From contig JAPKZD010000003.1 in assembly GCA_026393975.1 (NCBI GenBank), positions 161,814 to 225,813 of the forward strand: a stretch of DNA of 64,000 nucleotides. Reading direction: 5' to 3'. This document shows positions 2,416 to 46,880 of the stretch, one piece after another (position 1 is the first letter of the stretch; each line of letters opens with the position of its first letter). Below the pieces are notes generated by a model. The model worked only from the letters and a program-made list of their open reading frames with translations, searched no databases and was not told the origin of the DNA. This DNA comes from Candidatus Aminicenantes bacterium (GTDB lineage: Bacteria > Acidobacteriota > Aminicenantia > Aminicenantales > Saccharicenantaceae). The translations under genes and the position numbers were made by a program.

Positions 2416-3807
2416 ATGCCCATCGTCCTCCCCGAGACGTTCGAAAGGCCCGCGGCCGATATCCCCGACGCGGAGCTCACCCCTCGGGAGATCGTGGCCG
2501 AGCTCGACAAGCACATCATCGGCCAAAAGGCGGCCAAGAAGGCCGTGGCCATCGCCCTGCGGAACCGTTTCCGCAGGCGCAAGCTGCCCCCCGCCCTGGC
2601 CGACGAGATCGCGCCCAAGAACATCCTCATGATCGGCCCCACCGGAGTCGGGAAAACGGAGATCAGCAGGCGGCTGGCTAAGTTGACCTCCTCGCCTTTC
2701 CTCAAGATCGAGGCCAGCAAGTTCACCGAGGTCGGCTATGTCGGCCGGGACGTCGAATCCATGATCCGGGACCTCGTCCGCATGTCCGTCGACATGGTCA
2801 AGCAGGAGAAGGTCGCCGAGATCGTGGAGAAAGCCAGGGCCAACGCCGAGGAAAAGCTCCTGGACATCCTCCTGTCTCCGCCCAAGAAGCGCGACGACGC
2901 GAACGGCGAGGAGGACGACTCGAAATTCCACGACACTCGGGAGAAATTGCGGGCCCAGCTCCGCGACGGGCTCCTCGAGGATCGGCCGGTCGACGTCGAG
3001 GTCAAGGAAAAGACAACGCCGCCCCTCGAGGTCGTTTCGAACTCCGGGGTCGAGGAGATCGGATTCCAGATCCAGGAGTTCCTCCCGGGCTTCCTGGGCG
3101 GCCGGATGAAGAGGCGGCGGATGAAGATCAAGGAAGCGCGGGAGGTCATCCTCGAGGAAGAGGAAAAGCGCCTCGTCGACATGGACCAGGTCTCCCGCCT
3201 GGCCATCGAGCGCGTCGAGCAGTCGGGCATCATCTTCCTCGACGAGGTCGACAAGATCGCCGGCCGGGAGTCCGGACACGGGCCCGACGTCAGCCGCGAG
3301 GGCGTCCAGCGCGACCTCCTGCCGATCATCGAGGGCACGACGGTCAACACGCGCTTCGGGCTCGTCCGGACCGACCACATCCTGTTCATCGGCGCCGGCG
3401 CCTTCCACGTCTCCAAGCCCTCCGACCTCATCCCCGAGCTCCAGGGCCGGTTCCCGATCCGCGTCGAGCTCACGCCGCTCGGCAAGGACGACTTCGTGCG
3501 CATCCTGACCGAGCCGCAGAACGCTTTGATCCGCCAGTACGAGGCCCTCATGGCCACGGAGGGTGTGACCGTCTCCTACACCCCGGATGCCGTCGACGAG
3601 ATCGCCGACGTTGCCGAAAAGGTCAACGCCGACGCCGAGAACATCGGGGCCCGCCGCCTCCACACCGTCGTCGAAAAAGTCATGGAGGACATCTCTTTCG
3701 CCGCCCCGGACATCGCCGAGAAGACCCTCCGGATCGACCGGGAGTACGTCCGGGAACACCTTAAAGACATCCTCGAAAACCAGGACCTGCGGCGTTTCAT
3801 CCTGTGA
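2416..3807 (+). CDS. hslU: ATP-dependent protease ATPase subunit HslU
   Basis: 463 aa. [20 protein letters not shown] and the Walker [11 protein letters not shown] are present. Confidence 0.95.
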
Positions 3808-20520: not shown

Positions 20521-20593
20521 TGGCTAGGGGCGGAATCGAACCGTCGACGCAAGGATTTTCAGTCCTTCGCTCTACCGACTGAGCTACCTAGCC
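20521..20593 (-). tRNA. tRNA-Phe (anticodon GAA), CCA not encoded
   Basis: The reverse complement folds as a cloverleaf. Acceptor GGCTAGG/CCTAGCC, D-arm GCTC/GAGC, anticodon stem AAGGA/TCCTT with loop CTGAAAA (GAA), T-loop TTCGATT. There is one A.C mismatch in the T-stem. A consensus promoter sits upstream on the minus strand. Confidence 0.85.
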
Positions 20594-20654: not shown

Positions 20655-20766
20655 CATTCCCCGCCCATGAAGAACGGGGATACGGACAGGAGGTCTCTGT
20701 CCCTCCAATGGCCAGAGCCGAAGTGTCGAGCGAGCTCAAGGGCGAACGAGACAACCGCTGAACCCG

Positions 20767-20903
20767 GAGCCGAGGGGTGTCGCCGGAGGGAGCATAAAGC
20801 GGTGATTTAGACTTCCTGCGCCGGATACGCGGACTCCTCCCATCGGATCCGGCGCGGGAAGGCGTTAAAAATCAGCGCAGCGAACGAAGACGACCCCCGA
20901 GGC
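20767..20903 (+). repeat. Structured intergenic repeat, copy A (plus orientation)
   Basis: gAGCCGAGGGGTGTCGCCGGAGGGAGCATAAAGCGGTGATTTAG...GCGCCGGAT[ACGCGGACTCCTCCCATCGG]ATCCGGCGC...GTTAAAAATCAGCGCAGCGAACGAAGACGACCCCCGAGGC. Shares about 85% identity with copies C and D. It is immediately followed by TTGAAA-17-TATTCT. Confidence 0.8.
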
Positions 20904-20907
20904 GAAA

Positions 20908-20936
20908 TTGAAAAGGGGCGGTCGATATGTTATTCT
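20908..20936 (+). promoter_or_regulatory. Putative promoter of the DUF465 gene (TTGAAA-17-TATTCT) abutting repeat copy A
   Basis: TTGAAA at 20908-20913 and TATTCT at 20931-20936. GGAGGA RBS, then ATG 20959. Confidence 0.4.
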
Positions 20937-35123: not shown

Positions 35124-35147
35124 TCCGAGTTTTTTTCTTCCTATTTG

Positions 35148-35262
35148 GGCCGAGGGGCATCGTTGACGGTAGCATAAAGCGGGGATTTAGCCGTCATGGG
35201 ATGGGGCAGGCCCATGACGACGTTAAAAATCCACGCGCGGACGGAGACGATACCCTGAGGCC
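35148..35262 (+). repeat. Structured intergenic repeat, copy B (plus orientation; variant central hairpin)
   Basis: GGCCGAGGGGCATCGTTGACGGTAGCATAAAGCGGGGATTTAGCC-[GTCATGGGatggggcaggCCCATGAC]-GACGTTAAAAATCCACGCGCGGACGGAGACGATACCCTGAGGCC. The ends are conserved with A, C and D; the middle is replaced by a different perfect 8-bp hairpin. Confidence 0.7.
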
Positions 35263-35304
35263 CATACGTTGCTTTTGACCGGCGACTGTGCTACTTTTTA
35301 GGCG

Positions 35305-36708
35305 ATGATGATCCGATTCGGCACCTCCGGCTGGCGGGGGGTCATGGGAGAGGAATTCACCTTCCACAACGTCCGGGTCGTCGTCCAGGCCATCGCCAAC
35401 CACCTCCGGAAAAGGTACGGGGACGGGCCGATCTCCGTGGTCGTCGGCTTCGATACGCGGTTTCTGTCGGAGCGTTACGCCTTCGAAGCGGCCAAACTCC
35501 TGGCCCGGAACCGGATCGAGGTCTTCCTGGCCGAACGGGACGCCCCGTCCCAGGCCCTGGCTTACCAGGTCATCAAGAGGAAATGCCAGGGCGGGATCAA
35601 CTTCACCGCCTCCTTCAACCCGCCGCGCTACAACGGCCTCAAGTTCAACGTCGAAACCGGCGCCCCGGCCCTCCCGGAAGTGACGGACGCCATCGAAGAG
35701 GAGATCCGGCAGCTGATGCCCGGCTTCTCCACCCTGGCCACCCACGCCCCGGGCGAATCCGTCTCCCGCATCGACTTCCAGGCGGACTATCTGGCTTTTC
35801 TCCAGGGCAAGATCGATTTCGGCGTCATGCGGACCGCGAAGCTGCGTGTCGCCGCGGACCTGCTTTATGGCACGAGCCGCGAATACCTCGACGAGATCCT
35901 CGAGGAGAACGGCGTCGAGGTCGAGAGCATCCACGGCTACGTCGACCCCTACTTCGGCGGTGTCAGCCCCTCCTGCACGGAGGAGAACCTGACCGAGCTC
36001 AAGGCCCATGTCCTCGAGACGAAGTGCCACCTCGGGGTGGCCACGGACGCGGATGGTGACCGGTTCGGCATCGTCGATGAAAAGGGGGCCTTCGTCCATC
36101 CGAACATCATCTTGGCCCTGCTTCTCAACTACCTCGCCAGGGTCAAGGGCTGGCGCGGTGGCGTCGCCCGGTCTGTCACCACGACCCATCTCATCGACCG
36201 CATCGCCCGCAAGCACGACCTGCCGCTGACCAAGACGAAGGTCGGCTTCAAATACATGGCCGACCTGTTCCTCAAGGGCCGGATCATGTTTGGCGGGGAG
36301 GAGAGCGCCTGCATCGCCGTCAAGGACCACCTCCCCGAAAAAGACGGGATCTTTGCCGGGCTCTTGGTCGCAGAGATGATCGCCGCCACCGGCCGTAGCC
36401 TGGGCGGGCTTCGCGAGGCCCTTTTCAAGGAATACGGAGAAATGGTTAGCGGTGAGCGCAACCTGCCCCTGACCCCGGAGCGGGCAAAGAGGCTGAAGGC
36501 GCTCATCCAGGATCCTCCGTCGAAGCTGGGCCGCCGGAAGGTCGTCTCCGTCGAGACGATCGACGGCCTCAAGCTCGATTTCGACGAGGACCGCTGGATC
36601 GTCCTCCGCCTGTCCGGGACCCAGCCGCTCATCCGCTGCTACGCCGAAGCCGAGACGCGCGAGGAGGTCGAGGCCCTCTTGAAAAAGGGGCTGGAGGCGG
36701 TCAGGTGA
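35305..36708 (+). CDS. Phosphoglucomutase/phosphomannomutase (alpha-D-phosphohexomutase) family protein
   Basis: 467 aa. FGTSGWRG N-terminus. The active-site loop reads TASFNPPRYNGLKF, where the canonical motif is [ST]ASHNPP.YNG.K. A metal-binding DADGDR loop is present. Confidence 0.85.
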   Translation: MMIRFGTSGWRGVMGEEFTFHNVRVVVQAIANHLRKRYGDGPISVVVGFDTRFLSERYAFEAAKLLARNRIEVFLAERDAPSQALAYQVIKRKCQGGINFTASFNPPRYNGLKFNVETGAPALPEVTDAIEEEIRQLMPGFSTLATHAPGESVSRIDFQADYLAFLQGKIDFGVMRTAKLRVAADLLYGTSREYLDEILEENGVEVESIHGYVDPYFGGVSPSCTEENLTELKAHVLETKCHLGVATDADGDRFGIVDEKGAFVHPNIILALLLNYLARVKGWRGGVARSVTTTHLIDRIARKHDLPLTKTKVGFKYMADLFLKGRIMFGGEESACIAVKDHLPEKDGIFAGLLVAEMIAATGRSLGGLREALFKEYGEMVSGERNLPLTPERAKRLKALIQDPPSKLGRRKVVSVETIDGLKLDFDEDRWIVLRLSGTQPLIRCYAEAETREEVEALLKKGLEAVR

Positions 36709-42136: not shown

Positions 42137-42162
42137 CCCCTGAGGACCCGCCCCCGCAGCGG

Positions 42163-42299
42163 GGCCTCGGGGATCGTCTCCGTCCGCTGCGGTGATTCTT
42201 AACGCTATCCCGGGCCGGATTCGATGGGGGGAGTCCGCGTATCCGGCCCGAGCTAGCTAAATCACCGCTTTATGCTCCCTCCGACGATTCCCCTCGGCC
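42163..42299 (-). repeat. Structured intergenic repeat, copy C (minus orientation), in the 3' region of the RRM-protein gene
   Basis: The reverse complement aligns with copies A and D: GGCCGAGGGGAATCGTCGGAGGGAGCATAAAGCGGTGATTTAGC..GGGCCGGAT[ACGCGGACTCCCCCATCGA]ATCCGGCCC..GCGTTAAGAATCACCGCAGCGGACGGAGACGATCCCCGAGGCC. Confidence 0.8.
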
Positions 42300-42327
42300 C
42301 CGATTTCTGCGGTGTCGGGCTATTAGA

Positions 42328-42362
42328 GGGGACATGCCTTCCCAGTACGTGTCCCCCTTTTT
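42328..42362 (+). terminator. Rho-independent terminator downstream of the RRM-protein gene and repeat C
   Basis: GGGGACA-(15-nt loop)-TGTCCCC followed by TTTTT. Confidence 0.55.
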
Positions 42363-42681
42363 CATCTCCCCTCTGCGTCAAAAGGCACTCCATTCCATTG
42401 GCTGCAATGCTTTCTGTGTCGCAAGACGCCACCCGGGCTGAGACAGGGACCGTCCAGAGCCCCCGTAGCGGAGGGGGACCCATCGGCTTGCCGATGGGGG
42501 AACCGCCGGGACTGGTTCCCAGGGGGGCCGGGGGATATGGATGGTCCCTGTTTCAGCCTAAAAGGGTGGCGCCAGCGATTCTTGCCTGTTCCTGGGGTGA
42601 ACCTTTGGTCATCTCGCTTCGTTGTACCCAGTGAAGTCCCAGGAGAGGAGTTTAGAAGTGTCGGACCGGCTGAGTGTTCCC

Positions 42682-45404: not shown

Positions 45405-45436
45405 GAGAGAAAAACTCTTCTTTCCACTAATTATAG

Positions 45437-45574
45437 GGCCGAGGGGTGTCGTCGGCGGAAGCATAAAGCGGTGATTTAGCCTGCCCGGGACGGAGACGCG
45501 GACTCCTCCCATCGACTTCGGACCGGGAAGGCGTTAAGAATCACCGCAGCGGACGGGGACGATATCCCGAGGCC
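45437..45574 (+). repeat. Structured intergenic repeat, copy D (plus orientation), abutting the leuC promoter
   Basis: GGCCGAGGGGTGTCGTCGGCGGAAGCATAAAGCGGTGATTTAGCCTGCCCGGGACGGAGACGCGGACTCCTCCCATCGACTTCGGACCGGGAAGGCGTTAAGAATCACCGCAGCGGACGGGGACGATATCCCGAGGCC. Confidence 0.8.
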
Positions 45575-45577
45575 ACG

Positions 45578-45606
45578 TTGACAAGGCCTCCGGGCCCCCA
45601 TAAAAT
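45578..45606 (+). promoter_or_regulatory. Putative sigma70 promoter of leuCDB (TTGACA-17-TAAAAT)
   Basis: Consensus -35 at 45578-45583, a 17-nt spacer (aggcctccgggccccca, self-complementary), -10 at 45601-45606. AGGAGG RBS, then TTG start at 45627. Confidence 0.5.
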
Positions 45607-45626
45607 GGGGGAGCCAGGAGGTATAT

Positions 45627-46880
45627 TTGGGCAAAACGCTGACGGAGAAGGTCCTCGGCCGCAAGGCGGGGAAGGACGTCCAAGCCGGAGAAGTCATCAC
45701 GATTTCCCCGGACGTCATCCTCTCCCACGATAATTCGGCGGCCATCATCCAGGAGTTCCGCAAGCTCGGCGTCAAGAAGGTCAGGGCGCCCGAGAAGATC
45801 GTTATCGTCCTCGACCACATCGTCCCCGCCTCCGACGAAAAGTACGCCCAGAACCACAAGTCCATTCGTGAGTTCGTCGCCGAGCAGGGGATCCCCAATT
45901 TCTTCGACATCAACGCCGGCATCTGTCACCAGGTCCTGCCCGAACAGGGATTCGCCCTTCCCGGCAAGGTCATCGTTGGCAGCGACTCCCACACGCCGAG
46001 CTATGGCGCGCTCGGGGCCTTCGCCACCGGCATCGGCCGGACCGAGACCGCCTGCACGTGGGCCACGGACGAGATCTGGCTCCGGGTGCCGGAAACCATG
46101 CGCATCGACCTCTCGGGTCGTTTCCGGGCCGGAGTATTCGCCAAGGACCTCAGCCTGAAGCTCATCGGGGACCACGGCGCCGAGATGGCCAACTACAGGG
46201 CCGTCGAGTTCGCCGGGCCCGCGGCCGGCGATTTCAGCGTCGGGGCCCGGCTGACCCTGGCCAACATGTCCGCCGAGATGGGCGCCAAGAACGGCTATTT
46301 TGCCCCGGACGCGAAGACCCTGAAATGGCTCGAAGGCCGGGCCCGAGGGCCTTTCGTCGTCGCCTCGTCGGACCCGGACGCCCGCTTCGAATCCATCCTC
46401 GCCTACGACCTCGATGCGCTCGAGCCCCAGGTCGCCTGCCCGCACACGGTCGACAACGTCAAGCCCATCGGGGCCGTCGCCGGCAAGCCCGTCAACCAGG
46501 TCCTCATCGGTACGTGCACCAACGGGCGCCTCGAAGACCTCGAGGCCGCCGCGGCTATTTTCAAGGGCCGCAAGGTCCATTCGGGCGTGCGCTGCCTCGT
46601 CATTCCCGCCTCGTGGGAAGTCTACCGGGAGGCGCTCAAAAGCGGCGCCCTCGCCATTCTGGCCGATGCCGGATGCGTCATCCTCAACTCGGGCTGCGGG
46701 CCGTGCCTCGGCGCCCACGAGGGCATCATGGCCGCGGGCGAGATCTGCCTCAGCACGTCGAACCGCAACTTCCGGGGCCGCATGGGCCACCGCGATTCGG
46801 AGATCTACCTGGCCTCGCCGGCTACGGCCGCGGCCACCGCTGTCGCGGGCAAGATCGCCGACCCGAGGGAATTCGCATGA
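45627..46880 (+). CDS. leuC: 3-isopropylmalate dehydratase large subunit (short, LeuC type-2 / aconitase family)
   Basis: 417 aa. Aconitase-family Cys ligands ([17 protein letters not shown]). TTG start. Confidence 0.9.

Follow-up and report, generated by a model that had tools for sequence, protein, structure and literature searches.

Upstream of leuC in the 64,000-nt stretch of Candidatus Aminicenantes DNA analysed here (the window), a long imperfect palindrome ends a few nucleotides before the −35 box of a promoter, and two further copies on the same strand end similarly close to other promoters. This raises the question of whether the repeat is a working part of these promoters or occupies DNA that happens to stop where they begin.

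The window holds four copies of the repeat, an imperfect palindrome of 120-160 nt, within 25 kb; copies A, B and D lie on the plus strand and copy C on the minus strand (Table 1). A repeat finder, a 17-nt core pattern and a covariance model agree on the same four copies and on no others, the core pattern giving exactly four matches in the window against 0.33 expected, and the covariance model exactly four copies with sense scores of 104-159 bits. All fold as long rods (−60 to −84 kcal/mol, z of −3.8 to −6.2), and their reverse complements fold less well. Copy A displays a 5′ outer arm, ACCGCTGAAC, followed by the core GCCGAGGGG...CCCCGAGGCG, and sits between a divergent tRNA promoter and the promoter of a DUF465 gene. 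Copy B is a short-apex variant without an outer stem. Copy C includes an outer stem, CCGCAG/CTGCGG, and is antisense to both adjoining genes; its 3′ end lies 17 nt (outer-stem end, 42154) or 23 nt (model-match end, 42160) from the stop codon of the gene for an RRM protein. Copy D has no outer stem and starts 31 nt past the stop codon of the upstream 127-aa gene. The 3′ outer arm is absent from A, B and D.

Table 1. Repeat copies, promoters and neighbouring features, in window coordinates.
Feature	Position	Strand	Details
tRNA gene	20521-20593	-	
tRNA promoter	20654-20626	-	TTGACT-17-TATACT; divergent from the DUF465 promoter
Copy A	20754-20904	+	model match 20765-20907, 148.5 bits; fold −67 kcal/mol, z = −3.8
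DUF465 (YdcH) promoter	20908-20936	+	TTGAAA-17-TATTCT, TG extension, 9/12 matches; 3-nt gap after copy A end 20904
Copy B	35147-35263	+	model match 35145-35264, 103.7 bits; fold −60.4 kcal/mol, z = −5.6
PGM/PMM promoter	35269-35297	+	TTGCTT-17-TGcTACTTT by phylogenetic footprint; 5 nt after copy B
Copy C	42154-42312	-	model match 42160-42302, 159.2 bits
Hairpin before CTTTTTC	42328-42362	+	GGGGACA...TGTCCCC
Second long-hairpin repeat family	42428-42571		unrelated, ~145 nt, next to copy C; BLAST of upstream flanks 80-91% identity to L006, L007, L077, L083
Copy D (flagged)	45436-45574	+	139-nt imperfect palindrome; model match 45434-45576, 154 bits
leuC promoter	45578-45606	+	TTGACA-17-TAAAAT, 11/12 matches vs 0.0 expected in shuffles; 3-nt gap (ACG) after copy D end 45574
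leuC −10 inverted repeat	45578-45615		GGCCCCC-ATAAAAT-GGGGG(A/G)GCC, −10 TAAAAT as loop; extends into the ribosome-binding site

The earlier note had described the plus-strand copies as ending 1-5 nt before a −35 box, and this is true of A (3 nt), D (3 nt) and, with a corrected hexamer, B (5 nt). The promoters that it had placed after copy A, for the DUF465 gene, and after copy D, for leuC, were both found as TTGAAA-17-TATTCT and TTGACA-17-TAAAAT. The hexamer TTGACC, which it had taken for the −35 box beside copy B, must be replaced: it lies at 35275-35280, 11 nt off, has no usable −10, fails the promoter scan and is TTGGCC or TTGGAC in relatives. TTGCTT (35269-35274) is conserved instead, paired with TGcTACTTT at 35289-35297, a promoter that scores below the threshold of the scan. 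The PGM ATG at 35305 lies 7 nt after the −10 end, which leaves no space for a ribosome-binding site; judged by this spacing, the PGM mRNA is probably leaderless. The aconitase-family gene leuC has a TTG start at 45627. The inverted repeat around its −10 is kept in relatives, both arms having changed together in L160 (CCTCC-ATAGAAT-GGAGG; numbers with the prefix L denote loci beyond the window), and it could be an operator or a structure controlling leuC expression.

Comparison of orthologous intergenic regions for presence or absence of the repeat, a check suggested with the initial proposal of a regulatory role, revealed that the leuC, PGM and DUF465 promoters all persist without it. At leuC, 80 metagenome loci were compared (LeuC 69-96% identical), and TTGAC[AG]-N16-18-TAnAAT occupies the same place in all 42 that have LeuC at least 85% identical and enough upstream sequence; the majority of these 42 are without the repeat. 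The model finds a match upstream of leuC in 10 of the 80 loci, comprising four forward copies flush with the promoter (L124, L125, L131 and L129, the last broken up by other repeats), five reverse copies (L118, L119, L127, L155 and L145) and one foldback remnant. In L118 and L119, the closest leuC relatives (96%), ~125 nt separate the reverse copy from the gene. The conserved leuC block starts at CGTTGACA, upstream of which the sequence differs among lineages: L121 displays a solo GGGGCCGAGGTCC, L130 a bare GAGGCC only, and the other loci different repeat families or nothing, with L132 having just 6 nt from stop codon to −35. In L128 (~2890-2950) a perfect foldback, comprising the 3′ arm and its own reverse complement, was observed as a decay product of the repeat.

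The PGM and DUF465 regions present the same picture. The PGM block ACGTTGCTTTTGG...TAyTTTTT is conserved in L199-L202 and the promoter in L198-L202, repeat present or absent; L201 and L202 lack the repeat in a 60-nt intergenic region, L200 holds a repeat fragment, and L199 (1448-1458) holds a solo GGCCGAGGCCC precisely at the site of copy B. The DUF465 block AAATTGAAAAGG...TATTCT and the divergent tRNA promoter are kept in L203-L209, and AAATTGAAAAGGxGxGGTCGATATGxTATTCTGG is conserved in L203, L204, L207, L208 and L209 with other sequence, or nothing, upstream of it. Between the two promoters, L203-L209 have a different small hairpin, another repeat family together with a decayed 3′ arm of the repeat, or 51 nt of unique sequence. 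The divergent promoter pair is itself conserved in relatives, ~50 nt apart where the repeat is absent (L209).

The DNA just upstream of the promoters thereby varies between the repeat in either orientation, remnants, solo scars, other hairpin repeats and nothing, while the orthologues at all three loci bear out the view that the promoter hexamers lie outside the repeat. Since they are conserved in repeat-free relatives, the comparison shows the putative leuC, PGM and DUF465 promoters to be older than the insertions and independent of the repeat. The space from the upstream boundary to the −35 in repeat-free relatives is ~6 nt in L132, ~21 nt in L201 and ~51 nt in L209. Because only ~6-50 nt are found there, the closeness of the repeat to the −35 is in large part imposed on D and B, and for A it is no more than mildly unexpected. 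Repeat families unrelated to this one end at the same promoter edge, 2-3 nt upstream of the −35, and an edge shared by different repeats is what purifying selection on the promoter would be expected to produce.

These observations make it probable that the element is not a promoter component but a structured, MITE/REPIN-like repeat, old and persistent, which intergenic DNA can accommodate only where it is non-essential and which abuts promoters for that reason. Together with other hairpin repeat families, it would gather in the dispensable part of short intergenic regions. In compact regions the only dispensable DNA would be that between the −35 and whatever bounds the region upstream, be it a stop codon or a divergent promoter, and the repeat would end at the −35 because no other dispensable DNA is available there; selection would fix the edge of variable DNA 2-3 nt upstream of the box. 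The repeat would be selfish or near-neutral and would propagate as a folded single strand, namely the sense strand, in the form of RNA or ssDNA. In relatives, copies have been interrupted or replaced by other hairpin repeats, and some have been removed, most simply through deletion between the short direct repeats, CCGAGG, at the base of the hairpin.

Solo GGCCGAGG(C/T)CC scars occur in L199 and in L121, just upstream of leuC. A search for intergenic solo motifs of the GGCCGAGGCC type found the L199 scar only, the second, in L121, having been seen by eye. Site-specific insertion into a palindrome of this type was considered and rejected: the motif is common in coding DNA, and the CCGAGG end motifs vary as base-pair partners (TTGAGG with CCGAAG in L053) and not as identical duplicates. 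The co-varying ends and the commonness of the motif therefore make deletion simpler than site-specific insertion, and the solo scars would most simply derive from deletion between CCGAGG direct repeats at the hairpin base.

The family extends well beyond the window. One genome per species was scanned with the pattern GCATAAAGCGGNGATTT, which gave at least 117 listed loci; with 16 specified bases the pattern is too loose, and about two-thirds of the 117 listed loci are chance matches and were filtered out. The listed matches include at least ~40 true copies, nearly all in Candidatus Aminicenantes assemblies, several of which have at least 3-7 copies each. Including metagenome copies upstream of leuC, at least ~45 copies exist beyond the window. 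Many copies are borne by assemblies labelled "uncultured Eubacteriales" (CAZGJS, CAZZCH and CAZIQR, with L005, L018, L023, L025, L054, L060, L100, L106, L110 and L112); their gene neighbourhoods are common to Aminicenantes assemblies, and the label is probably wrong. Within the sample the family does not extend beyond Candidatus Aminicenantes, in which the PGM and DUF465 homologues also place the window.

None of the window copies, which are 84-88% alike, has its nearest relative among the others, while orthologous copies (C/L006, L004/L102/L107, L117/L026, L080/L106, and D/L124/L125 with forward copies in L124 and L125) are 83-97% alike. These values and the orthologous sets mark the family as old and as passed on vertically, with some losses. 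Rfam 15 returned only the tRNA in the whole window at gathering score, and permissive Rfam scans of D, B and C gave nothing or hairpin noise far below threshold. A core 20-mer had no matches in viral contigs, and the searchable literature held nothing relevant for the sequence or for Aminicenantes repeats and ncRNA motifs. Given the lack of an Rfam or literature match, the family appears to be undescribed to date.

Other repeats lie beside the copies and inside them. Next to copy C is a member of a second, unrelated long-hairpin family (Table 1), which gave only hairpin-type noise in Rfam. This family also occurs near leuC or DUF465 in L123 and L207, and upstream of the studied repeat in L006, L007, L077 and L083; its position beside copy C indicates that intergenic regions collect several repeat families. 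A third family, agatatttaccagaa..gcggctccgag..cgctccgccgcacttctg..cgctccctgccgc, is often found beside or inside copies of the studied repeat, with loci upstream of leuC in L120, L123, L129, L136, L142 and L148 and in the 5′ flank of L107. In L107 (~2617-2864, minus strand) and L112 (15-153, minus strand) one and the same insert breaks the repeat at an identical point, after GCGTGAAGAAT/ACGTTAAGAAT; the insert begins AAACCCATTCGACTCCCCGGCCTTAAGCCCGGGG and spans ~95 nt in L107. Two different assemblies thus share a small element nested at a specific site. The hairpin at 42328-42362, similar to GGGGACAyGT hairpins in L120, L122, L125, L144 and L203, is likely to be the terminator of the RRM-protein gene, in which case copy C would be transcribed antisense within the RRM 3′ UTR.

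The fold of the repeat was described with a model, R1, comprising 31 aligned copies, 143 positions and 35 base pairs. In this alignment, which leans towards its own structure, 96.2% of cells pair and 16 of the 35 pairs present changes on both sides, values that none of 500 shuffles reached; with slid partners as controls, pairing falls to 30-48%. The core of ~143 nt grows to 165 nt or more with outer stems. Its ends, GGGGCCGAGGGG... and ...CCCCGAGGCCCC, pair mutually, making the whole element one imperfect palindrome with terminal inverted repeats, while the arms are not palindromes themselves and the internal loops are asymmetric. Many copies outside the window have extra outer stems, either GGCCGCnGA.../...TCnGCGGCC or GGCGATGCC.../...GGCATCGC, plus further complementary flanks.

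Conservation is concentrated at the base of the rod, where GGGGCC-GA-GGGG pairs with CCCC-GA-GGCCCC and two purine-rich internal loops occur. The conserved parts comprise a tandem G-A base, two purine loops of the GGA/GGA type, the invariant helix GCGGUGAUU/AAUCACCGC, and AUAAA and UUUAG/GCGUnAAGA bulges; the highest values fall in unpaired or non-canonical segments (AGCAUAAAGCGG, GAUUUAG, GCGUnAAGAAUC and CGCAGCGRACGGAGA). The apical stem, on the other hand, is interchangeable between subfamilies, which display a standard form, an "MFD-type" form, the short form of copy B or a conserved ~90-nt insert. G-U cells outnumber A-C cells by 59 to 14, and 41 of 42 copies fold more stably as the sense strand (means of −73.8 vs −62.7 kcal/mol). 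The G-U excess and the stability of the sense strand therefore indicate that selection on the fold acted on one strand.

Changes between orthologous copies were also sorted by their effect on pairing. C and L006 differ by three compensatory changes, two one-sided changes that keep the pair and one broken pair; for D and L131 the corresponding values are five, three and one, and for L080 and L106 two, two and four. D differs from L124 and L125 by no compensatory change and by a single one-sided change each that keeps the pair, one pair being broken in L125 only. The pattern, which is not uniform, suggests that selection may act on the fold in place, and possibly on a function.

A functional structured RNA is accordingly the first alternative to be weighed. 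The hairpin might stabilise or end the upstream transcript from a 3′ UTR or intergenic position and shield the next promoter from read-through, or it might be a multi-copy small or protein-binding RNA. The covariation and G-U asymmetry fit a sense-strand RNA fold, the orthologous compensatory changes point the same way, and a conserved base with variable apical stems is typical of functional RNAs; moreover, B and D lie 21-31 nt past a co-directional stop codon with no other terminator there. Against this, orientation relative to co-directional genes is random (11 vs 12), and for the nine copies flanked by divergent genes there is no incoming read-through. Within 150 nt, 22 promoter-like sites point away from the element and only three into it, and among 37 copies a single one is preceded, within 150 nt, by a promoter-like site in the sense direction. 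Close relatives have repeatedly lost the repeat with no compensation to be seen, and the family has no Rfam match. We regard this explanation as doubtful. As an intrinsic terminator the element was rejected: it has the hairpin, but only 9 of 42 copies in sense and 8 of 42 in antisense have a T-run in the 30 nt after it, and D has none.

A related reading takes the conserved hairpin base for a strand-specific folded nucleic acid bound by a dedicated protein. The repeat would then be either a new ssDNA- or RNA-mobilised palindromic element kept for very long across Aminicenantes, or a multi-copy functional RNA with swappable apical domains, and the outward placement of its 3′ end would reflect the mechanism. 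We put this forward only tentatively.

Gene context was assigned with a simple codon-score finder made for this analysis, which is not a validated predictor, to 43 copies: 11 lie between two genes in the orientation of the element (+,+), 12 between two genes opposed to it (−,−), nine between divergent genes (−,+) and none between convergent genes (+,−), 11 being unclassifiable. The 32 classified copies thus include 23 in co-directional regions without orientation bias. Convergent regions make up 14.5% of those in repeat loci by number and 8.7% by length; on these crude gene calls, 0 of 32 is a modest depletion (P of ~0.007 by number to ~0.05 by length) that is weaker still when orthologous duplicates are removed. 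The flush end of the element, against a promoter or stop codon, is the 3′ and not the 5′ end (medians of ~30-65 nt vs ~280-400 nt). Two intergenic regions hold copies in opposite orientations in different lineages, and short-form copies in large intergenic regions (A, L038 and L069) adjoin a TTGA(C/A) hexamer within 1-4 nt. Flush short-form copies, 3′-end placement, regions occupied in both orientations and the absence of convergent copies are some signs of more than passive tolerance.

These same signs bear on the explanation that a mobile repeat actively targets DNA upstream of the −35, or hairpin or palindrome centres near gene ends, for which it may be added that outer palindromes of at least two kinds (GGCCGCnGA... 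and GGCGATGCC...) surround the core. Yet no common flanking target motif was found around the copies, no direct repeats of the kind left by target-site duplication flank A, B, D or copies outside the window, and a search for "empty" outer palindromes found the L199 scar only; the edge shared with unrelated repeat families points to selection instead. A 5′ CTAAT motif shared by the lineages of C and D is not general (3 of 43 copies). ORF clustering in 36 repeat-bearing loci (8-kb pieces) gave no recurrent transposase-like gene, only syntenic orthologues. Active targeting of promoter-upstream DNA is possible but not needed, and we consider it improbable. The proposal of the earlier note that the repeat is a mobile element at promoter-proximal sites is broadly supported: multiple copies, varying presence, nesting and 0 of 32 convergent copies agree with mobility, but proximity to promoters comes mostly from the sites that are tolerated, and no transposition signature was found. 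The apparent mobility is read only from the distribution of the copies.

Two further candidates were rejected. A replication-strand bias finds no echo in orientation relative to local GC skew, which divides 19 to 19, and a composite transposon of head-to-head pairs does not agree with the unrelated spacers of such pairs in L005, L054 and L023.

The dedicated upstream promoter module originally proposed, whether an activator platform, a UP-like or curved segment, a cruciform tuning the adjacent promoter or an insulator, is very unlikely. Copies A, B and D do end 3-5 nt from a −35, as do the short-form copies L038 and L069, and the invariant internal loops could bind a protein. However, the leuC, PGM and DUF465 promoters are conserved without the repeat, the closest leuC relatives bear it reversed and ~125 nt away, and across the family anything from 0 to ~95 nt separates the core end from the next promoter-like site downstream, long-form copies being the variable ones. 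In addition, 12 of 32 copies are antisense to both neighbours and mostly abut a stop codon and not a promoter, the 58-69% G+C of the repeat is not UP-like, and a one-strand fold preference is unneeded for a double-stranded cruciform. It is scarcely credible that the repeat supplies its own outward −35 and so makes hybrid promoters, in the manner of certain insertion sequences and of the Correia elements of Neisseria. In five short-form copies, TTGA(C/A) or TTGC does appear within 1-5 nt of the repeat end, with TAnnnT 17 nt later, but the hexamers differ between copies (TTGAAA, TTGCTT, TTGACA) and both boxes at A, B and D are conserved in repeat-free relatives, a comparison by which this reading is refuted for A, B and D.

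Set beside known systems, the preferred reading of an old, tolerated structured repeat finds its closest parallels in the REP, BIME and REPIN sequences of proteobacteria. These are likewise extragenic, multi-copy, G+C-rich imperfect palindromes that fold as hairpins, cluster with other modules, are inherited vertically and kept at orthologous sites over long times, and form lineage-specific subfamilies. In contrast with REPs, which are short (20-40 nt) inverted pairs, the Aminicenantes unit is a single hairpin of ~145 nt (~143 nt in the core) with asymmetric invariant loops and a swappable apex, and the head-to-head pairs in L005, L054 and L023 are not REP doublets, given their unrelated spacers. 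No GTAG-type head was found in the repeat, no gene for a REP-associated tyrosine transposase (RAYT) was seen near it in the 8-kb pieces, and the phylum is a different, uncultured one.

Correia/NEMIS elements of Neisseria, ERIC, RUP and BOX resemble the repeat in being non-coding and 100-200 nt long, with complementary ends, intergenic and often beside promoters or UTRs, foldable as RNA, and nested or decayed in places. The repeat is small, non-coding and multi-copy and possesses terminal inverted repeats, as MITEs do; it differs from them in that no target-site duplication was found and that conservation lies in internal loops and one inner helix, not only in the terminal inverted repeats, and the ORF clusters of the 36 repeat-bearing loci included no parent insertion sequence. 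Here the promoter boxes belong to the host, −35 and −10 being conserved in relatives without the element, in contrast with promoter-creating MITEs of the Correia type. Nor does it behave as a UP element or activator site, there being no co-conservation with the promoter, no fixed distance and no single orientation, in addition to its high G+C.

Integron attC sites and the ends of IS200/IS605-type elements share with the repeat an imperfect palindrome, structure on one strand and conserved unpaired bases, and the last two properties suggest recognition as a folded single strand. The base of the repeat, however, is GGGGCCGAGGGG/CCCCGAGGCCCC without RYYYAAC/GTTRRRY boxes; the stretch that resembles GTTAAGA lies inside the element and varies (GTGAAGA, GTAAGAA, GTTTCAA). 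The copies are dispersed, in both orientations, and form no cassette arrays, and no integrase or TnpA lies nearby.

The finding carries a caution, in that a repeat may end at a −35 without being regulatory: in a compact genome the promoter edge is where dispensable DNA and repeat debris stop. The same boundary between variable and conserved sequence serves as a phylogenetic footprint that locates three promoters of an uncultured phylum with single-nucleotide precision. Because of its orthologous persistence, one-strand fold and invariant loops, the repeat is a reasonable candidate through which to study the biology of REPIN-like elements in a phylum without cultured members, and it may serve as a marker for Aminicenantes lineages.
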